Shown: positions 24,176 to 49,605 of the stretch, in pieces
How the letters are laid out: every line of letters begins with the position of its first letter
Position numbering within the stretch: position 1 is the first letter of the stretch
Assembly: GCA_964187785.1 (NCBI GenBank)
Contig: OZ076409.1
Location: forward strand, 2,668,001 to 2,732,000
Direction of reading: 5' to 3'
DNA from: Amphiscolops sp. MND2022
Taxonomy: Eukaryota
Length of the DNA stretch: 64,000 bases
Made by a program: the position numbers and the translations under genes
The notes under the pieces: generated by a model
Told to the model about the DNA's origin: nothing
The model's database searches: none
What the model saw: the letters and a program-made list of their open reading frames with translations, nothing else

Positions 24176-27166
24176 TTTCGAGGCGGTCAATTAAGGAAAT
24201 ATGGAAAAGATAAGGTATATTATAACCAATAAAGGTCGCAGCGTGACGAAAAGCAAAGTTGATGAAATCTCATATTTGAATTCAGATACCGAGTGAAAAA
24301 TCTGGATACTTCTTTTTTTTTCATTCAGCTACGTCCGTAAGTTTCACACTTTATAAATAAATAAGGCCTAAATTATTCCCTTGAACGGAAAAAATTCAGC
24401 ACTACGCTTATTTTTCATGGCATCTTTTTTCCTATTGGCGCAAAATGCTTGGATTTATTTTCCTCAGCGAAACAAGACGAATAATAGGCTTGGACTGAGA
24501 TGAAAAATATTATTCATTTTCCAAAGTGGTTAAACAATTCCTTGGAGAAAATTTCGGACAGAAAATGCCCTCTTTTTCTGGAATATATTGACTGCAACGA
24601 TGCTCTGAAAACAGCTTTGTTAGTAATTTTAATGGCTATTTGAGTGTGCACAATCTATATTGCACGCTAGCAGTTGTTCACGAGGTAGAAATATATTGAA
24701 TGTATATTGAAAAACAAGTAAATACAGAAGGGGAGGTACCTTAATATTTATGGGAAGTGGGGAAGATTATCAATCGATGGAAAATTTTGACAGTTCGCCT
24801 TTGAAGAGTGACTAAACCGCCCTCACCACTAAATTTTACTGTTCCTAGAACCACCGATACTTCAGGATTACATATCTTAATATTACAAGCACTGCAGATT
24901 TTAGGAGTGAAAAGGAAACATTCTCAAGAGGCAATTAACGCCGTCAGACTTTTTATCTATAGAAACCGAGATGATTTAGGTCACACGAATTTAGGTAGCC
25001 TCGAATATTGTGAAATAGCATCACTACTGTATTTCTTTTATAGCGCAACACTCGTTACTTTTATTACACCATACTTTTTTCTCTCAATGACCTAGATTTT
25101 GACACATGAGCCCCCTGATTTTGGGGAGATTTTGACAATTAATTTCAAGCTTCTAAGAAAGAATTCTACACAGCGAATCCAATAAAAACACTGGAACAAG
25201 CTATTGTTGAAGAGCGATCAACCAAACACTTATTTCGTATGACGTGTGTACTTAATTCAAGAAAAAACAGTGTCACATTTCTACCGGATTTGACTCAGTT
25301 TTTCAGTACAGTTATTCAGTACCAAAATGGGAATTGCCCGAATAACTTTTATAGCTTCTTTTATTTCATGCACCGTCGCTAGGAAGCTAAACGTGGCATC
25401 ATTAGGTTATACAAAATGACATTACTCATGGTAAACAAGCCGGGAATGGCCCAAGTCGGCGCCCCGCTCAAAGTTAAAAAAACAAGTCAAGTTTTACAAA
25501 TATGAAAAAGGACACATTGTGAAAATTTTATCAAAATTCCAGTGCCGAAAAATAGCCCAAGAGATACCCATAAGACTCGAAAACGACTTTTTATCCTACT
25601 GGAAACATCAAAAAACATTTTTTCGAAAAAAGAAATTTTTCGGTAAAGTTTTTTTTTCGCAAAAGTCTCATAGTGGTGACAAAGATCCTTGAGCTAGTCA
25701 AACGATTTTTTTTAGTCGAAAACATTGATGGAAGTGAAAGGGTACCCTTTACCCGAATGAAACATTTTTCGCGAAAAAAATCGAAAAAGGGCCGCCGAAA
25801 GAAGCTAGGCCTTTTCCACCAGGAGTGAGAAATTCTATAGGATCGAAAAATAGTTAAAGAGGTCATCCGCATGACTCGGAAAAAATTTCCTCACAGAAAA
25901 TTTCCAATAAAAAACAAAAATTCTGTGAAAAAAATGTTTTCGGTAAGTCACATTGTGCGGAAAAAACATAAAATCCTAAATGCTTGCAAAACTCTTTCAA
26001 AGAGCAAAAAACTTTTTGGTAAAAAAACTTCAGAAAGAAGGGATTTCTTGGTCTCCCATCTACCTCTGGCAAGCATAAAATTATTTTTGTTAGTGCGAGA
26101 CTCGAACCCACGTACACCTGCTTCTCAGACATCGGAAAATACGGGTTTACCTCTAGGCCATTTGGCAGTTAGAAGTTACAACCTATAGAAATGCTTACAG
26201 AAACGTGTCAGTTCGTTGGTTTTAAAAATCCAAAACCCGGATAGGGTGCGATATTTTCGAACTTTTAGAACGCATTTTCTTTTGGATTTAACGTCAAAAG
26301 TTCGGATACAGCGTGCTGAGCCACCTATTTTATTGACAAAAATATTCATTTCCGAGAATTTTTTAGTCTCGTCTAGTTTTGTATGTTACGTTAAAGAATT
26401 AAAAAACGAAAGGGCACCCATTACACAAACTTTGATGCGCTTCCGAGGTTTTCGTTTAGTTGAACAAACTGAACAAAAACTTCAAATTTTGTATTCTCAC
26501 CTGTCTTGAAAAAAGCGAGCGACTGTAATATTCGGACTCTTATTCTAAAGTCGTCGACCAAAACTACCACAAACAGTTTCCGGACAAGCCTTCATTTTTC
26601 TTCACATGTAGCTGGTAGCGCAAAAAGTTCAGAAAAGCAGCCAGATAAAACTTTTCCTTTTTCCCTATACGAACGCAATTGCAATCAACGTTTGCGTTTA
26701 ATAATGAGAAACAAACCTGTGAAAAACGTTGTTCCAAGACGTTTCTGCAGACGAAAGAGTGAGGAGGAAGTCAGATGAACTTTCAAGACGTCTTTGAAGG
26801 ACGGATTGGAAAACCTTTGCTTAGTGAAAAATGCAGGGAAACGTTTCATGCGGCTTGCAAGTGATACGCTGAAAAGTTCTCGAAAACAAGTCGCCGAGTA
26901 CAACCAGTTGAGAACAGTTTGTCGATATTAGAAGCCCAAAACTGGTCAAAAATTAACTCGTCGATAATTTCTTAGGCTCGAATTCGTTGAAAGTATACAG
27001 ATTACTAATTGGCCGCTATAAACGCACCGGAAAAGTGCTTCTTAGAAATTTCATTTCAAACTGCTAGGTATTGATTAATTTTTCCTAATAGAAAGAAAAT
27101 GTCAAAACTCGAGTTTTCCGCATAATTACAGTTTTTATAGTTGTAAAACTGCTAGGATTGTCCTAC

Positions 27167-27541
27167 TTTAGTCGGCGCATTTTAGTAGAAAAATGTGCCC
27201 GACTCTTACAGTGGGTAGTTTTTTAGACACGAAAGGTTCATTTTTTTGTTCAGTTCATTTGTTCAACAACTTCGGAGAGGCTCAGAACGCGGAGGTTCAA
27301 AACACTCGAAATCTCAGAACCTTGTTTTCAGTTCACACTGAATGGTCCACTTTGTTGTTCATTTGTTCAACTTTTCAGCCGAGATATTCTAGTTCCGATA
27401 TAACATTTCAAAGTTCGGATATGACGTTTTGAAAGTTCGGATATAACGTTTTCTTTTCTCGTATAGCATTATTTTTTCCCCAAACTTCAAAACTTGTTGA
27501 ACCTTGGATATGGCGCCGACTTGGGCCGGTCCCGGCTTGTT
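27167..27541 (+). mobile_element. HINE-like repeat
   Basis: AGTCGGCGC ... GGCGCCGACTT, hairpin GCCG-GTCC-CGGC, TTGTT end. Confidence 0.7.
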
Positions 27542-30396: not shown

Positions 30397-30808
30397 CTGC
30401 ATTGTTTTTCAAAATCCCACCTGTCATGCCAGCATGATGGAAATATAATCTACTAAATATCTGTAATGTAAATATTATGTCTTATGTACTTAGATATGGG
30501 CAATATGGTGTCATATAATAAGAGCCATGGTTGTGAGCAACCCTACGTTACTTGTACTTTAATCCCTATCCCCCCTGAGTTTGAGCTATATATATTTACT
30601 TAATACTGAGCGCTCTAATTCCGGTGTCCGCACAAATGATCTTGCCAATAGCTTTTAATGTGCTATCTTATTCAATATTGGTTTGTCACGATAAGGGAGA
30701 GAAGTTTTCCGGTCAGACTGGACCGAGAGATGTAAAATAATGGAATCTGTAACTTCTACTAGCTCCCTCGCCTCAGGACTTGTAGTCGTGACGAAATTCA
30801 GAAAAGTT

Positions 30809-31696
30809 CATCACTAATCCATCAGCGGACTTAGTGATCCTACAACTTGATCTATTAGTGAAATTACAGTGCTATATTATCAAGGTTCATCGCAATCACA
30901 TCGCCAAGATTGCGGGTGAACAAAGTGTAGGACATTTAATTGATTTCATTTAATGATCCATCAGCGGATCTCACGGGACTTTAAAATGCATGAAAAACCA
31001 TCCTATACTCATCGTCGCTTTGTGATTATTAACTTTCATTGTGCTTCTCATTTCTTAACAAGAGCATGACACGTCTATATTTCATCATCCTGACTAGCAA
31101 CTACAAGGAATGAGAAAGTACATCCTTAATTCATCCTAAAAAAGAGTGAAGTGCTGGATATCTGTTTTATTAGATTAACTCATCACTAGTTCATCGTAAA
31201 TTCATCGCTAGTTCGACTTGTGTTAGAATTAGCCGAATTTTTAGTTGAGTTCATCCTAAACTCATCGTTGGAATTTCATTCATTAGATTTTGCTGTTTTA
31301 TTGAATGTATTCATCCTAAAGTCATCGTATATTTGTCTTCACTGCAGAATTAGCTGTTTCACCTGTTTTATTGACTGAATTCATCCTGAATTCATCGTCA
31401 ATTTCACTAGTACTGGAAATTAGTTATTTTCGAGGAGAGTTCATCCTTTTACCATCGTTGATTTAAATTGTGCTGGAAATCATTCATTTTGAAGACGAGT
31501 TCATCCTTTTATCATCGTCAGTTTATATCGTGTTGATTTTCGAGCTAAAAGACCACCATTCATCGCATTTTCATCCAGAGCTAAACCAGACTTGAAAAAT
31601 CAGCAAATATTCTGACGAATTCATCGCGTTTCCATCTTTAGTTTTGAAGTATTGATTTTAGTGCTACAATTAGTTGGAAAACATCGTTTTCTCATC
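30809..31696 (+). promoter_or_regulatory. Phased CATC-N7-CATC motif array in LTR
   Basis: Pairs start at 30809, 30888, 30999, 31121, 31192, 31252, 31312, 31382, 31442, 31502, 31561, 31622, 31682. Confidence 0.75.
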
Positions 31697-31753
31697 CTGT
31701 GATGCAGTTTACTCTGGTTTGACTCGAAATTAGTATATTATTGAATGATTTGA

Positions 31754-31975
31754 GTTGCTATAGAAACCATGACACTGCGTGCAGGCAATTGCGACATTGT
31801 AAAGTGATGATTAGTCATAATTAGCGTATGTAGATGTATCATGTGGTTTGGCCAACTTGCGGCAGTTCACAACACCGGTCACGTGACTTACCAATTAGCA
31901 CCAACTGGCAACAGCCAATAAGAGTCGGCTGGTAAGAGATTTAGCGTCTTACCAGCCTGAAAAGACACGTGAACT
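31754..31975 (+). promoter_or_regulatory. Candidate LTR promoter module
   Basis: X-box-like GTTGCTATAGAAAC, E-box GTCACGTGAC (31878), two CCAAT boxes, 11-bp stem hairpin 31927-31957, second CACGTG. Confidence 0.4.
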
Positions 31976-32349
31976 GCTGAATTTTGGACCGCCATTAGAG
32001 ATTACTCAGACAAAAAATTGCGATTAGCTACTGTCCAGTTGGACGAATTACGACAGACTTGAACCAGAAAACACATCTCTTATTCATCGTAAATAACGCT
32101 ACCTCCACAACTCTGAGTAATTTCTTGATTGATATCTATCCGATGAAATTTGGATGAACTCTACTTAATCCTCGCTAACTATTTCTCGTTCGTTACTAGT
32201 ATCCTTGTCTTACTGTAAAACTCATCGCATTTACATCTCAAGTTCAGAAATAGTGAATTTGAGTTTCGAATAACAGTATAAAATAGAAAAATACATCGAA
32301 AATCATCCAGAATCCAGTCTTCACTCATAATTCCTTTTCTCCCACCTCT

Positions 32350-33855
32350 ATGAACCCAGATCTAGGCACTGAACTCAGAAGCGGAAGAATTATTAGTTCC
32401 TCATTAGAAACACCCGTTCAAACGGATCCAGACATGGCTCAGTCTTCTGCCAATGACTCTGATAGTAACGAGACTTCTGATATCTCGTCTCAGTTGTCTG
32501 AAATAAAAGAGAGTTATGAGAGAAAGATAAACGAACTACAGAATGAGTTCAGTCAACTGAAGGACTTAATGATGGCTGTCATAAGTAAGACAGACACCGA
32601 AAACCGACAGTCAAGCTCGAAAGGTCCTTCAAAGCCGACCCACACGGTTGGGCTCGACATGGTGACAGGAGCTACAGAAACCCGCTCCAACCGCCCAACA
32701 ACCAGCTTCACCAACTTCAGAAGTTACCAAGAAGACGATTCAGACGAAGGAGAATCAACCCCCAGAAGCAATGAGGAACGACTACTCAATGCAATCGAGA
32801 CGATCCCCCAACGGATCAAAAACACAACCACCAACACGAAGCTTCTGCAGACACACGTGCCAAATTTCAGAGGCCAAAAAGACAAATTCGTCGAATTTGA
32901 GCACCTTCTCCTCAACCACCTTAGCCCGCTTGCCAACAAAATCACCGAGGAGAACAAACTACACTTCTTTCAAAGCCTTTTGAGAGATGACGCAATAGAA
33001 TACTGGCAATCCATCCAGATAACGCCAATGACAACACTAAAGGACGTACTCGACCTCTTCAGAAAAGAATTTGCAAAAGAGGATCTAAAGGAAGTGGCCC
33101 GTTACAAATGGGATCAAGCACGCTATGATCCCACAACAGAAACATTCGGCGATTTCCTCAAAAATCTCAAGAAGACTGCCAAACAAGCCTTCGGCAATGA
33201 GGCCGACAGAATAATCAAAATGTTCCTGTTTGGAAAACTGCCAGTCGAGATTCAACAAGAGCTCACCATGGCAAACAAAGAAGAGAGCTCCCCAGAGGAA
33301 ATCAAAACCTACCTAATGCGAAAATACCAGTACCAGCAGTACGTCGCGCCACCCACGGCAATCCAACCATTCAACGCGGTCACCTCCTCAGCACCACCTA
33401 CGATTACAACGACGAAGCCTACAACAACAACGACGACCGCACAACCGACAGAACGAAAACGATTTGAGGGACAATGTTTCTACTGCGGAAAGACAGGACA
33501 CCGCAAAACGGAATGTCGCGCCCGACAACGAGACGAAGCGAACGGCATAAAGAAGGAGGATGCAATCCCAATGAAGAAAGCAGCCGATCCAGATAAGCCG
33601 AAATACAATCCAAAATTGGTCTGCCAGATTTGCGGTTACACAGGCCACTCAGCAAGGGATTGCAGACGACGTGTCCCTAAAGAAAGCAGTTCTGCATATG
33701 GAAAGATTCCATACGCAACGAATTCACAAGATGACAACAGAACTAGAAGACAAGACTTAAAACGACAACAAAAGCCGATGAATCCTATGCAAGCAGTCAC
33801 CGAAGAAGAAGACCAAGAAACCTACTCTGATGAAGACATAAATCAGGGTTTTTGA
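32350..33855 (+). CDS. gag: Gag (501 aa)
   Basis: Capsid-like region and two CCHC knuckles (CFYCGKTGHRKTEC, CQICGYTGHSARDC); the ORF starts inside the LTR. Confidence 0.93.
   Translation: MNPDLGTELRSGRIISSSLETPVQTDPDMAQSSANDSDSNETSDISSQLSEIKESYERKINELQNEFSQLKDLMMAVISKTDTENRQSSSKGPSKPTHTVGLDMVTGATETRSNRPTTSFTNFRSYQEDDSDEGESTPRSNEERLLNAIETIPQRIKNTTTNTKLLQTHVPNFRGQKDKFVEFEHLLLNHLSPLANKITEENKLHFFQSLLRDDAIEYWQSIQITPMTTLKDVLDLFRKEFAKEDLKEVARYKWDQARYDPTTETFGDFLKNLKKTAKQAFGNEADRIIKMFLFGKLPVEIQQELTMANKEESSPEEIKTYLMRKYQYQQYVAPPTAIQPFNAVTSSAPPTITTTKPTTTTTTAQPTERKRFEGQCFYCGKTGHRKTECRARQRDEANGIKKEDAIPMKKAADPDKPKYNPKLVCQICGYTGHSARDCRRRVPKESSSAYGKIPYATNSQDDNRTRRQDLKRQQKPMNPMQAVTEEEDQETYSDEDINQGF
32660..32671 (+). 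other. Primer-binding site
   Basis: TGGTGACAGGAG directly after the LTR terminal CA; TGG is complementary to tRNA CCA; cognate tRNA not identified. Confidence 0.75.
33846..33852 (+). other. -1 ribosomal frameshift slippery site
   Basis: G GGT TTT (X XXY YYZ) immediately before the gag TGA; pol is in the -1 frame. Confidence 0.85.
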
Positions 33856-36800
33856 TTCCGCCACGATTTCCACCCGCTAGAAACACAACGCGCGACCAAC
33901 GACTTTCGACTCAACCGACTACACACGACCGTCCAATGAAGAAATGGCAGCCTTCACTGGACAAACGACTAAAAGCTGACGACGTCTATCAGCGAAGACT
34001 TTCCAACGATGAAAAAGCGATGAGAAATGCACGTCAACTCAACGGCAGCCGCTTTTCTCCACTCGCTGAAATCAACGATGAACAAACGCTGAACTGGCAA
34101 CCAAACACCATGAGGCAGGTGGAAGATGCCAAAGAGATGGAAACCCACCATCTAGACGACGACTCGACTTCACACTCAACAATCGACAAACGGCTTAGTA
34201 TTAAAAAACATGCAAAACAGAGTAGTATTAACGTTTCAAAAACTAAAAAACATGCAATTAAAACAGAAATTCACGTTCTCAGTCCCACTTTACATTTAAA
34301 CAAGAAAGATAAAATGCTGTACGTCCCTCTTCAGTTTGACAAATACGAAAACAGCGCACTTTTAGACACAGGCGCAATACAAAGTGCAATGTCTGAAGCC
34401 GAACTGCGAAAAATAACAACGGCTCATCCAGAAGCCATCCTTCAAGAATTCCCCCCTCCGAATTTCAAAATTCAAATAGCAAACGGGAACTTAGTCCCAG
34501 TGCGTAAGCAAGCCTTACTTAGATTTTACGTTGCTGGAAAAGTATTCGAAGAAACGTTCCTAATCCTTCCAACAATGGGAACAATTTTAATTGGAATGTC
34601 CTTTTTTGAAAAGTACTCAGTCAACTTAGACATCAAAAACCACCTTGTCCACTTCCCTAATCACATGATGTCCATGCAAGTTAGACAGCAAAAGAACAAC
34701 AGATTCAAGACTGGTTTAATTGATTTGTGTTCCAGTACTAGAACAGTGATCCCTCCTCTCCATCAAGTGATGATACAGGTCCACAGTGACGCGGACATCT
34801 CACTTACAACTGGTACAGTTGAGGGCTCACCTGGATTCATGCGAAAGACGTGTTTGCTTGTTTCTCCAGCTTTGGTTGACCTAGACGAGGGCAAGACGAC
34901 AATCCAGGTCACCAACCCAAACAACCACACGTACACACTTGAAGCCAACACCACTCTGGCACACTTTCGCATCCCGACACCACACCAGGCGGCAAACATC
35001 ACGCCCATGCCAGTGGAACACTTGAACTTGATCACCAAGTATCCAGATGAAGCCGAAGCAGTGATCAACCAACTGTTCGTGAACCCTGAAATGAAGTCAA
35101 CCAAGTGGTACCCAACTCCCGAGACGTGCAGTGAGCCAGACAAACTCAACGCAATTGAGCGACGGATTTATGATGAGATTCTGGCAACGCGAGAGCTCGA
35201 GAAGCTTGACCCGTCCCAATCCGATGAACAACGGATGAACTTCCTGAAGAACTTCAACTGGGACGACTCGCTTCTTACTCCGTCCCAACGGTTACAGGTA
35301 GAGGAGTTGCTGGTAAAGTACAACTCCATTTTTGCTAGACACCGTTTTGATATTGGCATGAACACTGATTTTAAAGTTAAGTTAACACCTCAACATGAAG
35401 AACCTGTTTATTCACAAAGTCTCCCGACTTCGACAAATTTGAAGGACGATTTGCTCGTGGAGTTAGCCCTAATGCAAGAGTACGGGATTATAACTACTTT
35501 GCCTCACAGCAAATACTCTTCCCCGATATTTGCTCAGCGTAAACCTAATGGTAAATTGAGGATTTTAGTTGACTTGAGAAGAATAAACCACCTGATCAAA
35601 AACGATTACGGTGAGCACAATCATCCCGTAACAACAATTGCTGACGCTGCCCAACACATGGCCGGGAAAAAGTACTTCTGCAAACTTGATTGTTCCCAGG
35701 CCTACCATTGCATTCCAATGGCCGATGAGCAATCTGTCCAACTGTTATCGTTTAATTTTGGGTCTAGAACTTTTGCATTTTTACGTCTAGCACAAGGTCT
35801 TAATCGTTCTTTGTCAGCATTTACAGGAGTAATCCGTGAGTATTTGGACCCCTTGGTCAAAGCGGACCGCTGTGCCCAATATGTTGACGATATTGGAATT
35901 GCAGCACACTCACCCGAAGAATTGATTACCAACCTTGAACTTGTTTTTCAACAATTGCACAAAGCTGGTCTTAAACTTAGCATGAGTAAATGTGAATTTG
36001 GACAAAAACAAATTGAGTACTTGGGAAAAACCATTTCTAGCACTGGGATTGCTCCCATTGAAAAACGCGTAACAGACTATTTAACGAAGTTGAAACCCCC
36101 CAATTCAGTGAAAGCGTTGCAACGTTATCTTGGTTTTGTAAACTTTTACAGGTCTTATATTCCCCGTCTAGCTGATAAAACTTGTTGTTTACAGGAACTC
36201 ATCAAGAAAGACGTCCCTTTCAAGTTGAACCAACAACATAAAGATGCTATTTTTGAAATTAATGAAAGTTTGTTAAAAGCAACAAAAGTGTCTCTGAAAT
36301 TGCCATTACCAGATAAACAACTGGTAATCATGTGTGACGCCAGCGAACACGCTGCAGGCTATGTGTTGTTAATCGAGGATTATGCAGACCCGTCAGTCAA
36401 ACATACATACGCCCCTGTTGCATTTGGATCTAAGAAATTTCAGGGCGGCCAGATGTCTCTAACAATGTATGCCAAAGAGTTTTTAGCTATGCACTTTGCC
36501 TTCGATGAATTTGGCCACATTTTGTGGGGTGCGAAAAAACCCATCATTGTTATGACTGACAATAAGGCCTTGACTAGATTTTTCCAGGCGAAGCATATCC
36601 CGCCTTCACTTTGGAATTTTTGCGATCAAACCCTTCAGTTCAATTTTCTATTAGCACATGTTCCAGGAGTTGAAAATCCCCCAGCGGATTACTTATCTCG
36701 GCTTGAGATTAGACCCGAAGACCGTGTACATTTAAAATTGACTGATACTATTCCAATTCACAGGATCGAGATCGACATCGCCTCCCGTACACCAAAACAG

Positions 36801-38945
36801 GAGGAAGACGAGCCTGATTACTTCCCCGCGAGCGAACCACTCAGATGCAAACGCCAGAAGGATGTCAAAGAGATGAAATTGGCAACTGGCACTGACGTGG
36901 CTCATGACGATGGGAAAGGGATGAAGTTCACCAACTGTGAGAGAACAGCGGCCTCAGATGACTTCGCGACTGACAACCATCTGACGTACCGCCTCACAGA
37001 CGTGGACGAGCCGATTCAACTCTCGCAATTCATCCGTAAAGTATCATTATCACACCCGGTAATGAGTCAGGTTAGCCCCGCCGAGGGGATCGATCTAATT
37101 CAGGTCCAGAAAAATAACTGGGTTATCCAAAAAATGATTAGATTTGTAGCAGGTACTGAAATTTTGCAACACCCAGTTAATATGCAAGACCAGTTTTTTC
37201 AAAAGTTGTACAAAAATCGAAAACGCCTACAAGTTGTAAACGGCGTCTTGTACAGACAGTTTTTTGATCACACGGGACTAGAGTCTCACAAGCAGTTAGT
37301 CGTTCCTGAAGACTGTATTTTGAAAATAATTAGGACTCTACATAACAGCCCGGTACAAGGACACCCTGGTTTAAAGAAAATGTTGTATGAACTTCGTAAA
37401 AGATATTACTCTCCTAACTTAGCCTGTAAAGTTCAAAAAGTCCTTGACGGATGTGAAAACTGCATGAAGTCTAAAAGTGTAAAAGAAACGCAACTACGTC
37501 CACCGTTACAAAAAATCTACGACCCGTGCGACGGACCAGAAGACCTGCTGGAAATAGACACCGTTGGTCCACTCCCGGCATCGAACGGTTTTACACACAT
37601 TCTGACGGCTGTTGACGTTTTTTCGCGCTACCTGTTCGCCGTTCCGCTGAAGAGACCTGACACACATTCCGTAGTCAGAGGACTACTGTCGATCTTCACA
37701 AAACACGCGTATGTGCCCAAACACATTCTGACCGACAAAGGCACGGCGTTCACGGCTGAACTTCTGTCTGAAATCGCGAAAGCGGCTGATATTCACATCT
37801 CCCATGCCACGATAAAGCACGCGCAGACAATAGGCATGGTGGAGAGAACGCACGCGAAACTGAAAAAGATCCTTAAGATTAGTGTAAACGCAGACAGACC
37901 ACAATGGGACCGCTATGTCGACATAGCAATCATGGCCCATAACACAACGTATCATGATTCACTGAAATGTTCACCAACTGAAATTTTCCACGGAAGAACA
38001 CCATACAACTCACTAGATCTGCAATTCCGAAACGCAAACAAACCGGCTGAAACAAAGTGCAAAGACGTGAACGAAATTCTAGACAAAATGAATTTTATCT
38101 TCAGAGACAATCTAGACAACATCATTTCCGCCTATCACAAGTACAAAACGTACTATGATAGAAAAGCACGAGCACAGCCACTGAAGGTGAATGACTTTGT
38201 GTTCCTACTAGACCCTAAGTACGACTCTCAGAGAAGCAAAGAAGAGTTTAAAACTTTCCACTGGAAAGGACCGTACAAGGTGATTGAAGTGCTATCCGAT
38301 AGCAACTACATCATCCGCAAAGTAGGCACACACCAAACTCAGTGCGTACATCGCATGCGACTGAGATTGTTCAAACCGGAATTTCCGATTGACGACATCA
38401 ACGTGTCCAAACATCTCTACCCAGATACCGAAAGGGTTGAAGACACGGACATTTTCGACTCGAATATTCCGACGACCGACGAAGTAGATCAGAATGAGAA
38501 TGACAATCTAGATCAAGACTTGGTCGAAGAAGAGCCTTCAGAAGAAACAATTCCTCGGGTACAAGAACAACACACTCCACAAGTAATTCCACCAGAAATA
38601 ACCACGAGAATAGACTATCAGCAAGTAGAAACTGATCACAACAACTTTAGACCACCTACAGTTAGATTTGGAACGCGAGAAGAAATTATTCTACCGCCTC
38701 CCCGCGATGAAAGTAGGATAAGAGTACCTCTGAGAGACGAACAACACGAAAACCAGTCACAACAGACAAACACGCAAAACGAAAATGAAGAAAGGATGAG
38801 TTCTAGACCGTCTAGATCAAATCAAAGTAGGTACAGGTTACGTGAGAACCCTACACCGAAAACGTATCCAGACTTCCTCATTCATGAGATTACTTCAGCT
38901 AGAAACGCACTGAGAAAGACCAACAAAATAGACGTAACGATTTAG
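33852..38945 (+). CDS. pol: Pol polyprotein (PR, dUTPase-like, RT, RNase H, integrase)
   Basis: LLDTGA protease; LDCSQAY and YVDD in RT; CDAS/KEFLA/TDNK in RNase H; HHCC, IDTVG/TDKG/VER and WKGPY in integrase; uninterrupted 1697 codons. Confidence 0.97.
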   Translation: MIPPRFPPARNTTRDQRLSTQPTTHDRPMKKWQPSLDKRLKADDVYQRRLSNDEKAMRNARQLNGSRFSPLAEINDEQTLNWQPNTMRQVEDAKEMETHHLDDDSTSHSTIDKRLSIKKHAKQSSINVSKTKKHAIKTEIHVLSPTLHLNKKDKMLYVPLQFDKYENSALLDTGAIQSAMSEAELRKITTAHPEAILQEFPPPNFKIQIANGNLVPVRKQALLRFYVAGKVFEETFLILPTMGTILIGMSFFEKYSVNLDIKNHLVHFPNHMMSMQVRQQKNNRFKTGLIDLCSSTRTVIPPLHQVMIQVHSDADISLTTGTVEGSPGFMRKTCLLVSPALVDLDEGKTTIQVTNPNNHTYTLEANTTLAHFRIPTPHQAANITPMPVEHLNLITKYPDEAEAVINQLFVNPEMKSTKWYPTPETCSEPDKLNAIERRIYDEILATRELEKLDPSQSDEQRMNFLKNFNWDDSLLTPSQRLQVEELLVKYNSIFARHRFDIGMNTDFKVKLTPQHEEPVYSQSLPTSTNLKDDLLVELALMQEYGIITTLPHSKYSSPIFAQRKPNGKLRILVDLRRINHLIKNDYGEHNHPVTTIADAAQHMAGKKYFCKLDCSQAYHCIPMADEQSVQLLSFNFGSRTFAFLRLAQGLNRSLSAFTGVIREYLDPLVKADRCAQYVDDIGIAAHSPEELITNLELVFQQLHKAGLKLSMSKCEFGQKQIEYLGKTISSTGIAPIEKRVTDYLTKLKPPNSVKALQRYLGFVNFYRSYIPRLADKTCCLQELIKKDVPFKLNQQHKDAIFEINESLLKATKVSLKLPLPDKQLVIMCDASEHAAGYVLLIEDYADPSVKHTYAPVAFGSKKFQGGQMSLTMYAKEFLAMHFAFDEFGHILWGAKKPIIVMTDNKALTRFFQAKHIPPSLWNFCDQTLQFNFLLAHVPGVENPPADYLSRLEIRPEDRVHLKLTDTIPIHRIEIDIASRTPKQEEDEPDYFPASEPLRCKRQKDVKEMKLATGTDVAHDDGKGMKFTNCERTAASDDFATDNHLTYRLTDVDEPIQLSQFIRKVSLSHPVMSQVSPAEGIDLIQVQKNNWVIQKMIRFVAGTEILQHPVNMQDQFFQKLYKNRKRLQVVNGVLYRQFFDHTGLESHKQLVVPEDCILKIIRTLHNSPVQGHPGLKKMLYELRKRYYSPNLACKVQKVLDGCENCMKSKSVKETQLRPPLQKIYDPCDGPEDLLEIDTVGPLPASNGFTHILTAVDVFSRYLFAVPLKRPDTHSVVRGLLSIFTKHAYVPKHILTDKGTAFTAELLSEIAKAADIHISHATIKHAQTIGMVERTHAKLKKILKISVNADRPQWDRYVDIAIMAHNTTYHDSLKCSPTEIFHGRTPYNSLDLQFRNANKPAETKCKDVNEILDKMNFIFRDNLDNIISAYHKYKTYYDRKARAQPLKVNDFVFLLDPKYDSQRSKEEFKTFHWKGPYKVIEVLSDSNYIIRKVGTHQTQCVHRMRLRLFKPEFPIDDINVSKHLYPDTERVEDTDIFDSNIPTTDEVDQNENDNLDQDLVEEEPSEETIPRVQEQHTPQVIPPEITTRIDYQQVETDHNNFRPPTVRFGTREEIILPPPRDESRIRVPLRDEQHENQSQQTNTQNENEERMSSRPSRSNQSRYRLRENPTPKTYPDFLIHEITSARNALRKTNKIDVTI

Positions 38946-38972
38946 CCAAGAAAAGTCTCATTTTAAATCTGA

Positions 38973-41201
38973 GATGTATTACGGATGAACAAATCACAAA
39001 ACGAACGAATTACATGCAATTTTAACTTAAAAGGTACATGAAGATGTAAAATGGATGAAAAGTTACTAAAAATCACATGAAAACCGCATACAAACAAAAC
39101 GAGATGTAAAACGGATGAAAAACGATCAAAAAACCAGAAAACACAACACACAAAAATTTGAGATGAAAAAAGGATGAAACCACACGAAAATTTAGCTCAG
39201 ACACACGAGAGATGAAAAAGTGATGAACTCAGCCAAAAAATCGACCAATCAACATGCAATATTTACTAGCGATGCATTTGAGATGGAAAAATACCATCAG
39301 AATGCAAGGGCACCCACGTTCATGCTATTACAAGACTCTAGCTCGGCCAGAGGATGAAATAGCGATGAACTCGATCCAATTATTCATAAATTACATGAAA
39401 TCAATTAACGAGATGAATTTGTGATGGACACTACCATCAAATCGCGACCGAATTTATCGTTAACCTGACACAATACTCTAGCTTCGCTGGAGGATGTCAA
39501 AACGATGAATTTAGTCTAAATGGAAATTCGAAAATATTAAATGACTTACCAACACCTCTTTGTGAGGGGAAACACCATCAACATAACATCACAATAAATC
39601 AGCTAATTCGCAAACAACATGTAACTCCACGAAACGATAAAAAACAACCGACCTTATTTCGAATCATGCAACGAAATTATGCGACACAAAAATGAAATGA
39701 TCAATACATGTAAAGTTCAAAGACCTGCCAAATCAATGACGTCACGAAAGCAATTAACAATTCCAAACTACATGCAATACAAATGAGCAACGCACGGAAA
39801 TATACATGTACCGTTCAAGAATGAATGAGATAATATATGCAATTCACACCAAAAACATCCGAACCTAGACGAATAAAAATGAAACAAACGATCGAAAATA
39901 CATGAAGTCTACTAACTTACATGCAAAATATAAGAACTGACGAAACACCTACAAAACTAATAAAGGAGTGAGCACCCCCCAGTAAACATCAGCTCATAAC
40001 ATACAAAACACCCCTATCGAAAAGCTAAAAACATTCCTTCGTGCTGGCTGGCATTTTCTCTGAAAAGAGTGCTGGTTAGTTGAGGCGGGGAGCTCACAAC
40101 CATATTCGGATGAAGCTTGCTGCGTTGGTTATCCAGCGGCTAGTGGATTCTCAGTTAGTTTTGTAGGGGCTTTGTGACGACAAAGCCCTGTCCAAATGAA
40201 CGAAAATAAAATTAGAAAACAGGAAACTACCACCGAACATATAACGACATGTCAATAATGGGGCAACCCATTTAAAAGAGCACATCATGTAACAATCCAT
40301 ACATGCAAATACAAGAAACAGATAGTCTAAAACTGGACACATGCATAACCGTAGATGTCAATCACATTGATTGATCGGACTGACCGTCGAATGGACAAAC
40401 CCATTTCGACGAATAATGGCAAACAACCAACCGAAAAATTGACATATAGACTATATATAGCCCGAAACTACGAGATTCCATTTATCTGAAAGGAGCGGAG
40501 CAGCTCCACTCACCCAGCTCTGGACTGAAGCCACTAGTACCTTGCACGCCTACAGGCTATCAGTACCACTGCTGAGTGAACTTATTTTCGACTGCCACGC
40601 AAGCGGCGGTCACCAGAATTCGAACTAAAAATACATGCAATGACGTTCCGAAGTTGACAAATTAGAAACATGACGACGATGATCAAAACACATGTACCAT
40701 AAAATTCATGCAAATTCAAAAACACGACAAATGGTTATAACCGTATAACGCTAAAATACATGAAGAAAACAATCCGAAACACCGCAATATTAATAAAAAT
40801 TTCCTCCGGACATGAAAAATGCAACCCCCGCTTACGTTATAGCCAAATAACATCGAAAACACGCAAAAATCCGTACATTTCAACGCACGATGAAAAGAAG
40901 ATGAACTATACAGCAGAAACTGGACAAGACAAACTTGCGATACAAAAACGATGAACTATAGCAAATAACGCACGAAAGTGCTGAAATCAAACGCAAGATG
41001 AAAAAACGATGAAATACGTAGAAAAACCACATGTAACAACATGCAATATTTCTGACGCACCGAAAGATGTAAAAACGATGACAAAAACAGTTTTCACGAC
41101 GTCGCTTGGTCGACCGAGGAAAACGTGATGAAAATGAGATGAGAAATCAAAAATCAAACGCTGACGAATTACTTACACTACCACGAGATGTAATAACGAT
41201 G
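38973..41201 (-). promoter_or_regulatory. GATG-N7-GATG (CATC on minus strand) arrays downstream of pol
   Basis: Pairs at 38973, 39043, 39103, 39162, 39211, 39271, 39353, 39412, 39493, then again from about 40889 to 41187. Confidence 0.7.
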
Positions 41202-41542
41202 AATACCATAAAAGCGATGCGCGACCGATGATCTATGATACAAAAATACCGAGGACAATGCTTCAAGTGAACTGTTGGACGAACTTGTTGATTTACGCGT
41301 ACTTAATATCCTCTGTAACTATCACTAACAACTCAAAAGGAAAACAGATGTTGGGCACCAAAATAACTATTGTTGTAAATACACTGCTACCGATCTTTCC
41401 GACGTAGCAGAATTTTCTCTCTCTCTCCCCTCTCTATCCAGAGGCTGTACCCAATGTTGACAAATCATTAAAGAACTAATACTACAAAAACAATAATATA
41501 AACAATACAAATCTAAATCAACTGAGTTTGCACCATTCAAAG

Positions 41543-42480
41543 TTAATTGCCGATCTCTGGGCTCATTGCTCGCTCTCCATCCACTTCATATCCTAACTGT
41601 TCATAGATATGACGCCGGTAATCTTCATTCGCGACGATGCCAATGTCATCCCATAGGAGCTCCTCCGTGAAATCTGACAGATCCGTGATACGCCCAACTG
41701 CTTCTGAGACTTCATCCAAAAGCGGCCCTTCAACACTCTCGTACAAGCGTATTCGATGTGCCTTCAAGTAACTGACGACCGTAGCGCACACACTGCTGGT
41801 CACATCACTAGACATGTGACCCACTTGCACACACTTCGTTTCCAACGGAAACTGCGGACTTTCACACAAGCATAACAAGAATCGAAGGAAGCGAACTGAC
41901 GATTCACTAGCACACGCCCGGAACAGGTCGATCTCAGTACCAGCCGTAGCTAATACTTCAGGGCTCACAAGACTGCGATACTTGGCCACAAAGTTCGGCA
42001 TGTCGCGATCCATCCGTCTCCGCTCAGCTGACGTGATTCGCTTGAGTTCCAGAAGTAACTCCGTGAAACGGCTTGCCTCCTGAACCACAAGTTCTGTCTC
42101 TGCCTCTGCTAGAATGACCGGACAACAGATACTGAGGTGGAATGTCACCTCATCCTTCAGTCCCTTCACATTGAGAACTTCCTCAACGACCGCAAGCAGG
42201 AACTTCTGCACTCGCACTAAATCCTCTTCAAAATGGGCTAGATTTGCATAGTCGTCGGAGTGCACTGCAAACCGCCCCCGCAACCACTCTAATTTGGGTC
42301 CACTCAACTCCAATTCAGACACAACCAAGCTCAGGAAAGCACGTACATCTGTCACTGGAGGTAGAACAGACTCATCCACCACATAGACCAACAGGGCTCG
42401 TACAAAACAGGCGCTCTCATATGCCCAGTGACACCCGCGAATTGCACTGTCACTGAAACTCCACTGGTATGCAGTCACTA
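41543..42480 (-). CDS. Antisense hAT-transposase-derived gene, last exon
   Basis: tttcag acceptor, phase 1; KFLLAVVEEVL...LSICCP, RFLLCLCES and PLLDEVSEA resemble a hAT C-terminal half. Confidence 0.75.
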
Positions 42481-42619
42481 CTGAAACAACAAAAAGCGAC
42501 AAAGAATTGTACACACGTTTCACACGATACTCACAAACCAATCCAACCCCCCCCTGCACACAATACTGACTTAGCCGCCCGAACCAAACACACGAAATAA
42601 ATAATACAAGAATACTCAC

Positions 42620-42815
42620 GAGCACGGAGAACAAGACTCAAGACATGAAGCCGCATCGCAACGCCAGGATCACCACAGAGCACATAGTCTAGCGGATCAA
42701 CATCTCCCTCGTCATCAGGTGTCCTCAGTAAACCGCAAATGAAAGGCCATTTCTCACGCAATTCAGAGAGAACGTCAGGCACGTCCCACAAAGACACCTC
42801 GCCTTCTAAGACCGA
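42620..42815 (-). CDS. Antisense hAT-derived gene, exon
   Basis: ttgtag acceptor, gtgagt donor, phase 0 to 1; SLWDVPDVLSELREKWPFI resembles the TRW...WP segment. Confidence 0.75.
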
Positions 42816-42945
42816 CTACAAAAACAAATCACAAGTTAAAACAGTTTTATTAACGGAAAGATACCACCCCCCCCCGCAAAACATAATACATAGCGAGCCC
42901 ATTACAACCATAAACTTCGATAAAACAAAACTCTATGACACTCAC

Positions 42946-43431
42946 CCGCAACAGTTTGGGACAGGACAACAACAGATCATCTTTCACATAGGGTTTCAGT
43001 CTAGACTGCAAGTGATTAAGGATAACATGAACGTCGGTGCCCCCAAGAACTCTCGCGCTCGCAGCCACTATAAGTCGATTGATGTCAGCCAGTCGAACGG
43101 GTACTAAGCTAATCGTCCCAATTCCGGCACTTGAGCACAAGACACGATTTAACGGCGGGAACAGCTCACAATTTAGGCCGAGGGGACAGATCTCACTCAG
43201 AGCACCACAAAGCAGGTTCACAATCCACGAAACTAATCGCGGCTCCCAATCCTGCGTGTAGCTAAAGGAAAACAGGATATACTGCGAGACCCCTTCTGAG
43301 CTACACATGCTCACTCGCCCAACGACCCTGTCCGCCACGATGCCAATGGAGAAGCTACTGAACGTCGACTCACTCCACAAAGCAATCAGACGCCGCATGA
43401 CGAAGGGCCACAAACCCAAAATGATCACGCC
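42946..43431 (-). CDS. Antisense hAT-derived gene, exon (degenerate RNase H-like core)
   Basis: ttttag acceptor, gtgagt donor, 486 nt, phase 0 to 0; GLWPFVMRRLIALWSESTFSSFSIG. Confidence 0.75.
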
Positions 43432-43565
43432 CTAAAACACAAACGTAATACTGTACATAAAGCAAATCTGCAAACTCAGAAACATATACAAACTACATAA
43501 TTCAAATCTTATATTTGCCGCCCATTCGCTACTAGCTACAACTAATAAAATAAAAATATAGTTAC

Positions 43566-44128
43566 CACAATATCATCAAGTCGACACCTCCGTCCAAACA
43601 TGGTCACGTGCTGCGCATCGGTCGCCACCATTAGCTCCCATAATCCACATACACTCAGCAGGTCACAGTCCCGGTACAGAGCATCAATCACCAGACACAG
43701 GAACAGCCGCACAGTACGTTCCTGGCCTTCCGATTCGTCCTGTTCTAGATCTTCCCAGACAGGTTTCCCTGCGAGTTCCATCTGGAAAACTTCTGCTGGG
43801 GTAACATCTGGGCAACGCTCAACAATAGGCACAGTCACTCCTTCCAACAAAGCTGATTGAGCCACACTGTCCGACACTGACATCAGATTGCCGTCACGAT
43901 CCCGCAATGCTAGCCCGCGTCTAAGCCGAACCAGACAATCGAGGCGGTGATGTTGGACGCCCCGACAATGCTCCATAAAAGTCGTGATACCACGACTTGC
44001 AACCTTTATGTCCCGCTTGCACAACAAGCACCTCACATAAGATTCACGGGACTGATGATATTTCGCGTATCCAATAGCTAAACCACAATACACGTGATTG
44101 AACCAGCTCCGAGCGATCCGTTTCCGCT
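43566..44128 (-). CDS. Antisense hAT-derived gene, zinc-finger exon
   Basis: aacag acceptor, gtaact donor, phase 1 to 0; W...CLLCKRDIKVASRGITTFMEHCRGVQH (BED-like C2H2). Confidence 0.8.
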
Positions 44129-44786
44129 CTGTTTTAACACAACAGCATACATATCAGACACCATAGAAATGCACACAGCAACGTACCACATCTTATGAAC
44201 ATCCTCAAAAACCGAAAAATGCAAAAGTAAAACGACAAATCAAAAAGTTCACCCGGAGTGATGAAAAAATGATGTAAAATAACATTTTCATCGGGAAATA
44301 TAAGCGAAAACGAAGAAAAAACAAAAAATGAAAAAGAGATGTAATTGTAGACCACCAGGATGAAAAATGGAAACTTTAAAGAATGAAAGCCTCGAACGAT
44401 GAAAAAGAGATGAATAGAACAACTTTGAACCAAAATTGAGATATTCTAGAGCGAAAACAACTTAACGATGAAGAAGAGATGTAAACTGAAAAGAAATCAC
44501 TGAAAGATAGCGAAAACCCAAACGAGAAATTTTAAAGATGTAAAAGAGATGAAAAGTTCCAAAAAACGACCAGAGAGCGAAAAGACTATTGTCCAAAACT
44601 TTTGACGATGAGAAAACGATGGAAAATGAAAAACTGCGGAAAACATATAGTGAAAACAGAAAAAACGATGGAAAATGGATAGAAAAGAGAAAACGTGAAA
44701 AATGCTAGCGAAAGTAAAAACGAAAAGGGAAACGAATGAAAATCTACTGATCAGATACTTCACCGGTTTAAAGCTGTTTAGTTAAC

Positions 44787-45458
44787 CTGGCAGACGAGAT
44801 GCAATGGGCTCGTCATCGGAGTCCAACAGGCTGGGTCCCATTGGAGACGTCTCGAGGTCGACAGTACCCACATTGGACACAATACTTCCTGGAGCTGACA
44901 TGCCAGATGGAGGACTATGCAATGAGAGATCATCAGGAATTTCCAGTCGGGTCTCGGTGGTACCAGCTGAGGGAACTTCGGACGGGTCAACGTCAACGTC
45001 AAATGCCCCTGGAACATCAGCAACCGGTGGAGGAGGAGAAGCAGACAGGGAAGTCTCCACCTGGGGTTCATAAAACGTGGAACCATCTGCTGTCTCAGTA
45101 ACGGCTTGGACCTCCTTGTCCGCAGTATCCACACAGGCATCACTGGCTGCATCTATGCAAGCAACAACGGCATTTGCAGCGGTGTCAACTGTGACGCGAG
45201 GTGGAGGAAGAGGACTCCTGGGAGAGACACTGGCGTTGAGGTACCGATGGAAGCTCGGTGAGAGGACGGAAGCGGAAGCCCTCATCACAGGAGAACTCAC
45301 TGCACCTAGTGACAGGTCCTCAAGGAAAGAAGACAACTCTAGTGGAGGGGGCCCTCCTTGAGTGCTAGCATCAGCACTAGTTGCGGCGAAATCACTCGTC
45401 CCTACTCCTACGGAATAGCTGATGGGACGAGGCCTTGGTGCGTGGATCGGTGTGGGGC
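44787..45458 (-). CDS. Antisense gene, acidic S/P/D-rich exon
   Basis: tttcag acceptor, CAG|gttaac donor, 672 nt open, phase 1 to 1. Confidence 0.7.
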
Positions 45459-45701
45459 CTGAAAGAAGAAACAGTTACTGGACGACGACGATTAGAGAAG
45501 AAAGAGCGCGTACGCCGCGCGAAGAAAGAAAACCGGAGAAGAATACATCCAAAACTCATCTTCAAAAAATGGGATTTACAGCGAGTCAGTCATGGAGAGC
45601 TGTGAATGTTCATGACACATCCTAAATTCATCTCGAAGGTGAATTACATGGGTAATCGACCGCAAAGGACACTACATGCAGATAAGATGTTTACATCGGA
45701 A

Positions 45702-46240
45702 TCACATCGGAGTGTTCGGACGATAGCCTAGAGAAGTGAAAAGGAAATTGACAAACTCACTGTACTGCTGGATGCTATCCCGCAGCATGTCCCGCATGTG
45801 GCGGTCATACCACCCGAAGGTGATGCTGCCTAGGGAGGCATACCAGGGGTAGTGGTCTGAAACACCATACGAAAAGGAGTCAGCTACTGGACGGAGTAAG
45901 GATGAGATATGAGGGATTCGAAGACTGAACTGAAGAATGGAAGGATAGTACTTACACTGCGGAAGATACGGGACGTTAGGGGCCTGTTCAGTTTGCTGCT
46001 CAGGTTGATACTGAGGTACGTGAGATGCTGCAGGGATCGGAGCATCTTGAGGCGGAACTGTCTGCAACGTAGTCAGTTCGGAAATTATGCCGACAGAGTG
46101 AACGGAGTCCGCTAAAACCAAGACACGCCTTCAATTCCTAATTATTCCCCGGCCCGTTTGTGAAGAAGAGAAAAAATAGTGCACTTACTTTCTGTGACCT
46201 CGGTCTCTGGTAACGAATAGATGGAGTTGATATCCGACAT
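45702..46240 (-). CDS. Antisense gene 5' exons (46240-46189, 46111-45956, 45856-45761, optional 45727-45702)
   Basis: ATG at 46240; gtaagt, gtaagt and gtgagt donors, all phase 1, with matching acceptors. Confidence 0.55.
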
Positions 46241-47362
46241 CGCGAAGAATTGCAAAACAATCTGAAAAGAATGGAAGACGGTGAAAGAAGGAAAGAAATC
46301 GAAGAATCCAAGAGCAGAGAATTTGATCAGTAATTAAATGGCCTGATCAACCATGATTACAGAAGAACAAATTCAATAGAAGATTTCAAAGAGCGCGACG
46401 CAGCTTGAATGCCATGTTAATCAAATACTTGAATTCAGAAGATGAAAAATCGATGAAAAATCTCCGATTTCAAATACTGACAGCACTTTTCTTCCCAGTA
46501 CAACCAACTCAAGCTTTCTCTGAGAATGGATCGTCCTCTCCTAGGACTTGACAAAAAAAACTTCAAGTATTTGATTTGTCGACAGCTGCCAGTCTCAGAT
46601 CAATACCGACGAAGTTGAGCGGAAACGCGCAAAGGAAATCGTGGCGATTTCAAACCGACTTAAATGGAGGATGATTTATGGATGAGAATGCTACTGACAA
46701 CCGGTTGTAATTTCCTTCAGTTATAATTCAGTCTCAACCAATCAGATCGAGCAACAGTTACTATGGCGACGAATTCATCTCTTTCTCATCCACTCAAAAG
46801 TCGAGCAGCGGAAGTAACTTTTGACAGTTGCTATGGCGACGATTCATCTTCTTTCCATCGCGAGTAAACAAAGCGGCGGCGCCAGCCATTCCGCTAAACA
46901 GCATCGATGTCTCGTTGAGCAAACAATTCATCGTTCATTCATCCCCGACTCGTTGCCAATTTGTCAATGAAGCTAATCGAATTGTTTATTCAGCGTAGGC
47001 ATTTTGGAGGGAAACTTTTCTCCGAGAAATCAGCTTCTACCGAAAATAACCAGCCGAAACTCCCGTCAAAAGCATGACAACCAATAAAATGCAGATCAGC
47101 GGACATTCGATGGACCAAGAATTAGAGTTGCCGCGTCGAAAATTTTAACCGAAATCACCCAGGATGATGCCAGAAAAGACGATTACCGAAGGTCCTCTTC
47201 TCAGAGAAGCTCTCACAGGACAGAACAAACGAAGGACATGCCAGTTCAGAACTAACGAAGGCCATTTTCTCACCAACCAAACGAAGGACCAGTCGAAGCC
47301 AACGCCGAGACAACCATCCTCTGCACATTTGGCCCCTGCACTCTCAGTCCAAATCCCGCCCC

Positions 47363-47368
47363 GGGGAG
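47363..47368 (+). other. Short polypurine tract
   Basis: GGGGAG abutting the 3' LTR TG. Confidence 0.55.
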
Positions 47369-49605
47369 TGTCATGCCAGCATGATGGAAATATAATCTAC
47401 TAAATATCTGTAATGTAAATATTATGTCTTATGTACTTAGATATGGGCAATATGATGTCATATAATAAGAGCCATGGTTGTGAGCAACCCTACGTTACTT
47501 GTACTTTAATCCCTATCCCCCCTGAGTTTGAGCTATATATATTTACTTAATACTGAGCGCTCTAATTCCGGTGTCCGCACAAATGATCTTGCCAATAGCT
47601 TTTAATGTGCTATCTTATTCAATATTGGTTTGTCACGATAAGGGAGAGAAGTTTTCCGGTCAGACTGGATCGAGAGATGTAAAATAATGGAATCTGTAAC
47701 TTCTACTAGCTCCCTCGCCTCAGGACTTGTAGTCGTGACGAAATTCAGAAAAGTTCATCACTAATCCATCAGCGGACTTAGTGATCCTACAACTTGATCT
47801 ATTAGTGAAATTACAGTGCTATATTATCAAGGTTCATCGCAATCACATCGCCAAGATTGCGGGTGAACAAAGTGTAGGACATTTAATTGATTTCATTTAA
47901 TGATCCATCAGCGGATCTCACGGGACTTTAAAATGCATGAAAAACCATCCTATACTCATCGTCGCTTTGTGATTATTAACTTTCATTGTGCTTCTCATTT
48001 CTTAACAAGAGCATGACACGTCTATATTTCATCATCCTGACTAGCAACTACAAGGAATGAGAAAGTACATCCTTAATTCATCCTAAAAAAGAGTGAAGTG
48101 CTGGATATCTGTTTTATTAGATTAACTCATCACTAGTTCATCGTAAATTCATCGCTAGTTCGACTTGTGTTAGAATTAGCCGAATTTTTAGTTGAGTTCA
48201 TCCTAAACTCATCGTTGGAATTTCATTCATTAGATTTTGCTGTTTTATTGAATGTATTCATCCTAAAGTCATCGTATATTTGTCTTCACTGCAGAATTAG
48301 CTGTTTCACCTGTTTTATTGACTGAATTCATCCTGAATTCATCGTCAATTTCACTAGTACTGGAAATTAGTTATTTTCGAGGAGAGTTCATCCTTTTACC
48401 ATCGTTGATTTAAATTGTGCTGGAATCATTCATTTTGAAGACGAGTTCATCCTTTTATCATCGTCAGTTTATATCGTGTTGATTTTCGAGCTAAAAGACC
48501 ACCATTCATCGCATTTTCATCCAGAGCTAAACTAGACTTGAAAAATCAGCAAATATTCTGACGAATTCATCGCGTTTCCATCTTTAGTTTTGAAGTATTG
48601 ATTTTAGTGCTACAATTAGTTGGAAAACATCGTTTTCTCATCCTGTGATGCAGTTTACTCTGGTTTGACTCGAAATTAGTATATTATTGAATGATTTGAG
48701 TTGCTATAGAAACCATGACACTGCGTGCAGGCAATTGCGACATTGTAAAGTGATGATTAGTCATAATTAGCGTATGTAGATGTATCATGTGGTTTGGCCA
48801 ACTTGCGGCAGTTCACAACACCGGTCACGTGACTTACCAATTAGCACCAACTGGCAACAGCCAATAAGAGTCGGCTGGTAAGAGATTTAGCGTCTTACCA
48901 GCCTGAAAAGACACGTGAACTGCTGAATTTTGGACCGCCATTAGAGATTACTCAGACAAAAAATTGCGATTAGCTACTGTCCAGTTGGACGAATTACGAC
49001 AGACTTGAACCAGAAAACACATCTCTTATTCATCGTAAATAACGCTACCTCCACAACTCTGAGTAATTTCTTGATTGATATCTATCCGATGAAATTTGGA
49101 TGAACTCTACTTAATCCTCGCTAACTATTTCTCGTTCGTTACTAGTATCCTTGTCTTACTGTAAAACTCATCGCATTTACATCTCAAGTTCAGAAATAGT
49201 GAATTTGAGTTTCGAATAACAGTATAAAATAGAAAAATACATCGAAAATCATCCAGAATCCAGTCTTCATTCATAATTCCTTTTCTCCCACCTCTATGAA
49301 CCCAGATCTAGGCACTGAACTCAGAAGCGGAAGAATTATTAGTTCCTCATTAGAAACACCCGTTCAAACGGATCCAGACATGGCTCAGTCTTCTGCCAAT
49401 GACTCTGATAGTAACGAGACTTCTGATATCTCGTCTCAGTTGTCTGAAATAAAAGAGAGTTATGAGAGAAAGATAAACGAACTACAGAATGAGTTCAGTC
49501 AACTGAAGGACTTAATGATGGCTGTCATAAGTAAGACAGACACCGAAAACCGACAGTCAAGCTCGAAAGGTCCTTCAAAGCCGACCCACACGGTTGGGCT
49601 CGACA
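47369..49605 (+). repeat. 3' LTR (2237 bp)
   Basis: Copy of the 5' LTR, followed by TSD CCACC. Confidence 0.96.

Follow-up and report, generated by a model that had tools for sequence, protein, structure and literature searches.

The question raised by this locus is why a short motif, the dyad GATG-N7-GATG, is repeated at near-regular intervals between two convergent genes of a retrotransposon, and what may read it. The window, i.e., the whole stretch of 64,000 nucleotides of Amphiscolops sp. MND2022 that was analyzed, contains at 30422..49605 (+) a Ty3/Gypsy LTR retrotransposon of 19,184 bp, assigned on the basis of two LTRs, TG...CA ends, a 5-bp target duplication (CCACC, within the 4-6 bp range), and a gag followed by a pol in the order PR-RT-RH-IN. 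The 5' LTR (30422..32659, +, 2238 bp) and the 3' LTR (47369..49605, +, 2237 bp) differ at five positions, which corresponds to 99.8% identity; the retrotransposon is young, and its gag and pol frames are open. A primer-binding-site-like TGG... sequence lies directly 3' of the 5' LTR (32660..32672, +), and the search for a polypurine tract returned a short purine run ahead of the 3' LTR. The gag frame, with two CCHC knuckles, extends from stop to stop at 32287..33855 (+), and overlaps the 1703-aa pol (33834..38945, +), which is read in another frame and belongs to a cluster of 1,482 member sequences. As the gag frame starts within the LTR (32287-32659), approximately 100 gag codons are found in both LTRs, upstream of the primer binding site.

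The gap between the pol stop at 38945 and the antisense gene (38946-41542, 2,597 bp) contains the dyads exactly as the first-pass annotation had described them, with starts at 38973, 39043, 39103, 39162, 39211, 39271, 39353, 39412, and 39493 on the plus strand (intervals of 70, 60, 59, 49, 60, 82, 59, and 81 bp), the first being 28 bp past the pol stop. These nine dyads form cluster 1 (38973..39507, +). The second cluster that had been placed at 40889-41201 is also present, with one additional dyad at 41216, so that cluster 2 (40889..41230, +) comprises six exact dyads together with degenerate ones at 40939 and 41116. The 15 plus-strand dyads of the gap are to be compared with a mean of 0.06 and a maximum of 3 in 2000 dinucleotide shuffles, and with a mean of 0.46 and a maximum of 5 when the 35 GATG of the gap are placed at random. 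Thirty of these 35 GATG are parts of dyads, and when spacer lengths of 0-20 between GATG pairs were compared, the enrichment was found at 7 alone.

The regularity of the intervals was likewise borne out, given that seven of the eight intervals in cluster 1 lie at most 1 bp from a multiple of 10 (p 0.0013), and only 3 of the 33 non-coding intervals of the element end in 3-7 (p 7e-7). The intervals fall into groups centered at 49.5, 59.8, 69.7, and 80.4 bp (n = 2, 16, 10, and 5), with a step of 10.2±0.3 bp that is fitted about equally by 10n and by 10.5n-3. A strict period of 10.0 bp was set aside, as a 10.5-bp period with an offset fits as well. The consensus of 45 aligned non-coding copies is (A/C/G)GATG, an A/T-rich N7, and GATG, followed by AA.

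A second, strand-biased motif was observed in the same region, where CATGCA occurs ten times on the plus strand and never on the minus strand (window 39013-41040; Markov-2 mean 1.6, maximum 7), its broader form ACATG is found 21 times in the gap, and the motif is retained in the relative P0269. In the antisense RNA, CATGCA corresponds to UGCAUG, an RBFOX-like site; alternatively, it may be a variant half-site.

One simple view of such a region would be that tandem repeats, or an inverted duplication of the LTR, left neutral remnants here. The dyads of the gap do face the opposite way to the LTR array, in which each LTR has 16 minus and one plus dyads, and some of the units are related, as shown by the spacer pairs with z>3 (7/45 within the LTR and 1/80 between gap and LTR) and by the 60- and 70-bp units reported by TRF at 76-79%. 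However, a plain inverted duplication with uniform divergence is excluded by the comparison of the spacers, which agrees with the earlier view that they are not an obvious inverted copy of the LTR: in-register identity between gap and LTR is 0.37 against 0.31 for shuffled spacers, the order of the dyad intervals in the gap is unlike that in the LTR, and the best blastn match is a single 66-bp unit (73%, E 4e-4), the remaining matches being motif-sized. This one weakly shared unit leaves room for an old common origin of some gap and LTR units. Nevertheless, the bases of the motif are invariant and the spacers are close to random, a non-uniform divergence that contradicts neutrality, and sites are retained both in the linkers of pol and in relatives that have diverged, so that the neutral explanation is scarcely credible. 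The arrays may have begun as tandem duplications, but their present state cannot be accounted for in this way.

The motif grammar proposed in the first-pass annotation is thus real, but its reach is wider than was noted there, covering the whole element and even the coding sequence of pol. Exact dyads number 70 inside the element and three in the 44.8 kb of flanking DNA, all three being located in or beside 11-bp tandem repeats, and the GATG dyad ranks first in an unbiased count of direct-repeat dyads (53 vs 3). The longest site-free stretch in the element is 2,973 bp. The densest arrays are those of the LTR and the surroundings of the start and introns of the predicted antisense gene. Each LTR carries an array of 14 minus-strand dyads, mostly 60 bp apart (30809..31696 and 47756-48642), and, near its end, three dyads of alternating orientation (32074..32237 and 49020-49183). 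Within the antisense gene, intron 3 has a mainly plus-strand cluster of one minus and five exact plus dyads approximately 70 bp apart (44189..44681), intron 2 has three minus-strand dyads 72 and 76 bp apart (45546..45708), and both orientations are found upstream of the start codon, with two plus and three minus dyads (46441..46943).

Inside pol, five exact dyads (34008, 34125, 35223, 36861, and 36909), all of which read D-x-x-x-M, are found where 0.41 would be expected under synonymous resampling, with none of the 5000 replicates reaching five, and degenerate dyads occur at 34077 and 38784. These sites are located in linkers, and neighboring ones are 69, 48, and 48 nt apart, the codon multiples near 70 and 50. 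Conservation was read from the amino-acid footprints of the motif in the proteins of relatives. The seven sites recur among the 15 listed members of the pol cluster to which this element belongs. In the sister cluster (74-89% identity; 15 members), D and M are retained at five of the seven sites, two sites were unseen, and two others are present, while the identity around the retained D and M is 27/73 and 15/41 (~37%). In two pol clusters at ~60% identity, the footprint is found in 2/15 and 0/15 members, and in 112 more distant pols it is at chance level (0.33 vs 0.29 expected). In one member of the family, in which the reading continues past the pol stop, the first dyad of the gap is retained, with its middle bases changed and indels on both sides.

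As the motif and its spacing are retained while the surroundings diverge, selection acts on the motif as DNA, even inside pol, where a putative binding code would be superimposed on the coding sequence, with sites gained and lost between families. This supports the suggestion that the grammar is maintained independently. A broader search of sequence collections with a triple-dyad DNA pattern returned 118 loci, of which 106 were metagenomic and 12 viral, and neither tblastn nor blastn matched any of them to the element; the six loci with 11-bp runs that were most specific for gap 7, and two others with 31/62-bp units, were rejected as relatives, being plain tandem repeats. A bacterial promoter scan, a type of scan that is not applicable here, gave results at chance level.

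The motif might instead act independently of a protein, through DNA shape or nucleosome positioning, with phased A/T tracts at a 10-bp period keeping the element open, for which the periodic An/Tn clusters of nematodes would be the model. The LTR array, cluster 1, and intron 3 do each show an AA/TT power peak at a period of 10.0, and A/T peaks are found at +6, +16, and +26 from the start of the motif. On the other hand, much of this periodic power comes from the spacing of the motif itself, and the eight invariant bases, with their exact 11-bp offset, persist in coding sequence even though D and M are thereby fixed, which implies base read-out by a protein. An explanation by shape is therefore considered very improbable.

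The motif could also be a signal at the RNA level, for packaging, export, or stability, on one transcript. The fold of the entire cluster 1 has z -3.3, and a hairpin at 39420-39540 (plus, z -6.2) includes its last dyad, which is paired with a degenerate inverted copy upstream. However, in the remaining cluster windows z is mostly near 0 and goes no further than about -3 to -3.6, the motif lies on either strand and is found in introns and LTRs alike, and helical phasing is a property of DNA, all of which makes an RNA signal less probable still than an effect of DNA shape. Between the two clusters, a structured RNA candidate was recorded at 39948..40190 (+), with z -3.16 on the genomic strand and -1.51 on the minus strand and a hairpin of ~20 bp at about 40038-40087, as well as a GC-richer folded patch at 40500-40620 (z -3.8, plus). 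The Rfam search gave no match at the gathering score, and one chance match at E 4.1.

If the motif is read by a protein, the element itself encodes a candidate. The antisense open reading frames, which had been noted as separate genes, are in fact exons of one predicted gene (41543..46240, -) with GT-AG introns and a single open frame of 1085 aa in seven exons, at 46240-46189, 46111-45761, 45458-44787, 44128-43566, 43431-42946, 42815-42620, and 42480-41543. For exon 5, a donor at 42864 was replaced by 42945, which matches the point where the conservation among homologues ends. Exon 4 (43566..44128, -) encodes a BED-type zinc finger (C-x2-C...H...H) followed by a helical region, exon 5 (42946..43431, -) a helix-strand-strand-strand-helix that may begin an RNase H-like core, and exon 7 (41543..42480, -) an all-helical region. 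Exons 5 and 7 match the Hermes transposase (8edg_A) weakly but in order, at residues 150-262, the top VIA match of exon 5, and 368-594. The residues of the finger are conserved (C33 in 43/46, C36 in 45/46, H53 in 44/46, H59 in 43/47, and H60 in 46/47), its helix is nearly invariant among relatives, and in Atlas exon 4 matches CGGBP1-like and zf-BED clusters at 0.93; the Pfam zf-BED domain is recognized in 16 of the 47 members of the exon-4 family, with the protein of the window falling below the cut-off. This family comprises 75 clusters at 90%, down to 47% identity.

The signatures of an active transposon were also sought. With the expected positions of the catalytic aspartates taken from the residue numbering of Hermes and from a weak model, D is present in only 7/18 sequences at the end of strand 1 in exon 5 and, at best, in 8/33 over the stretch expected for the second, and an invariant hAT D-D-E was not found. 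Around the antisense gene, the search for TIRs with an 8-bp duplication returned 56 short inverted matches, all with at least four mismatches in the flanking 8-mers. No DUF1985 or DUF287 match was found by Pfam in the five antisense frames scanned, and TRP28 (PF04195) is absent from the antisense frames. There was no usable match to exon 7 in Atlas, and nothing significant in the Foldseek PDB and viral searches or in a second VIA look; the exon-4 alignment gave 598 pattern matches in metagenomes, none of which was confirmed.

The remainder of the protein presents features of its own. Exons 1-3 (window 44787-46240, minus) place 358 residues ahead of the finger, largely Ser/Pro/Asp-rich and of low complexity, and this extension is a candidate activation or interaction region. 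The C-terminal tail, G-E-R-A-x-S-P-E (window 41546-41580, minus), has its R, S, P, and E in 15/15 sequences, and may be a phosphorylation site or an echo of a hAT motif, the possible counterpart being, presumably, the hAT 'ERxFS' motif. Three sequences that possibly come from one contig (P0278, P0146, and P0126) are 92% identical to the window in pol, 83% in exon 4, and 74% in exon 7, a hint that divergence is faster in the antisense gene than in pol.

The association between this gene and the motif can be followed in its relatives, in some of which the gene callers continued into intron 3. Of the 89 exon-4 relatives examined, 21 were usable, with at least 18 upstream residues, and the amino-acid footprint of the dyad was found in 8 of these 21, which represent about 2-3 subfamilies only, where 0.29 would be expected. 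A pair of opposite-facing dyads with the 71-nt distance of the window is retained in three relatives (58-61% identity), and the four sites of a further relative, at 89%, are separated by 69, 83, and 70 nt. The motif thus travels along with the antisense gene across considerable divergence, which fits binding by the invariant finger, and also by a fixed host factor.

In the latter case, the dyads would be sites of a host transcription or chromatin factor, arranged as homotypic enhancer clusters, and the antisense gene would have another role. LTRs commonly collect sites for host factors, and the conservation across subfamilies at 58% identity is what a fixed host factor would produce. However, a profile of the motif, which was trained on the element itself, found nothing above 11 bits in the 44.8 kb of flank, and the footprint fades in the ~60% pol families and is at chance level in the distant ones. 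The consensus also differs from the C/EBP-ATF element, TGATG-AA, in that T rarely precedes GATG (3 and 5 of 45). A host factor is therefore regarded as unlikely.

The reading that is preferred here, and held to be somewhat probable, is that the dyads are candidate cis-acting binding sites for the element's own hAT-derived antisense protein, with the activation or protection of the element as the outcome. This protein would descend from a hAT transposase that lost its catalysis, and the introns of its gene would survive because the genomic RNA, the template of reverse transcription, carries them in antisense orientation. An oligomer would set two BED fingers on two half-sites, each formed by GATG and A/T-rich DNA and lying one turn (11 bp) apart, and dyads spaced by 50, 60, 70, or 80 bp would allow cooperative, phased loading of neighbors. 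With clusters at most ~3 kb apart, the whole 19-kb element would be marked as self, and the element, together with related copies in trans, would probably be activated or shielded from chromatin silencing. CpG o/e is near 1, with no depletion, so that any anti-silencing would probably not operate through DNA demethylation. The inferred loading of an oligomer on phased dyads draws on the form of the dyad, which is that of a Hermes BED site: according to PMC10368747, the Hermes BED finger binds its tetranucleotide only with A/T-rich DNA next to it, in a cooperative manner in which exact phasing matters.

The same protein and sites might serve another purpose, either repression, as a copy-number control, or the coating of the double-stranded cDNA for nuclear entry or the choice of the integration site. 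The sites run over the full length of the element, in both orientations and including pol, an arrangement that suits the coating of DNA as well as the control of a promoter. It may be added that transposases recognize their own DNA for integration. On the other hand, the arrays are densest in the LTR and around the start and introns of the antisense gene, and the TE-encoded, transposase-derived binders described in bioRxiv 10.64898/2026.08.24.746577 activate their cognate copies. These purposes are given about the same low probability as a host factor.

A wider reading is offered more tentatively than activation or protection through the element's own protein: in a large Gypsy lineage, a class II (hAT) transposase would have been taken over as a spliced antisense gene, with its subterminal binding code extended over the whole element, including pol, and the catalytically dead oligomer would coat or wrap each copy by way of the helically phased dyads, so that the lineage stays active in the face of host silencing. 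It would be an animal, retrotransposon-borne counterpart of VANC or TnpA that arose through the capture of one transposon class by the other. Element-encoded accessory proteins that regulate their own LTR are represented by foamy virus Tas and HTLV Tax/HBZ, which are not derived from transposases; these retroviral trans-activators, compared by description only, would resemble the antisense protein in being accessory regulators. HTLV antisense genes are also mentioned in PMC11963269 and PMC7264820.

In PMC5735166, VANC of the Arabidopsis VANDAL elements (Mutator-like) is a TE-encoded protein whose short motif forms dense arrays of one orientation in the non-coding regions of its own element, namely introns, intergenic, and terminal regions, as is the case here. 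Unlike VANC, this system belongs to a class I element of an animal, its candidate binder is BED/hAT-like, without DUF1985 or DUF287, and its motif, which also occurs in coding sequence, consists of a spaced dyad phased along the helix, with no CpG depletion; whereas VANC motifs turn over in a family-specific manner through tandem repeats, the footprint here is shared at 58-61% identity and the spacers are near random, not tandem copies of recent date. TnpA of Spm/CACTA is also a regulator that evolved from a transposase, recognizes clustered cognate motifs, and activates related copies, the loss of catalysis being the proposed route to such regulators; it differs in serving its own DNA transposon and in binding its termini through HTH motifs (bioRxiv 10.64898/2026.08.24.746577). 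The words 'retrotransposon', 'LTR', and 'BED' have no occurrences in this text. The mode of working thus appears to be like that of VANC and TnpA, and the comparison places the element in neither group.

The likeness to Hermes consists of the BED finger followed by the weak in-order structural matches (PDB 8EDG) and, from PMC10368747, of subterminal repeats with a 4-base site and A/T-rich DNA, phasing, and opposite orientations on the two sides of the gene. It is accompanied by differences, as the protein here lacks conserved catalytic aspartates and carries a low-complexity N-terminal extension of 358 aa, TIRs and an 8-bp duplication are absent, and the AAGT site of Hermes is replaced by GATG in an 11-bp direct dyad. 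The antisense ORFs of the plant elements Retand, Grande, and RIRE2 and of the fungal Boty share the layout (PMC11963269 and PMC7264820), but this element has no TRP28, its antisense gene has seven exons, and its motif is phased and element-wide, rather than one tandem array. The plant antisense ORFs are described in PMC7264820 as having no similarity to other TEs, with a nested-TE origin unsupported.

A literature search by title and the start of the abstract, in a collection with most subscription journals outside its coverage, returned no LTR retrotransposon in which phased sites accompany a spliced antisense gene of hAT origin. VANC and TnpA, as self-recognizing regulators, belong to plant DNA transposons, whereas the present case is an animal retrotransposon, and the function of the antisense genes of LTR retrotransposons is treated as an open question in PMC7264820 and PMC11963269. 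A candidate protein, an exact candidate site, and a spacing rule were found together here. With its large protein family and a pol cluster of such size, a system of this kind could help to explain a large LTR expansion. The genomes of acoel worms are LTR-rich.

Finally, the DNA that flanks the element presents features of its own, such as a fragment of a rhodopsin-family 7TM receptor (window 23621-24190, minus), which points to an animal, a 22-bp tandem repeat (window 54207-54587) with dispersed copies in both orientations at 14044-14103 and 27391-27453, and an 83-bp tandem array (window 62415-63726).
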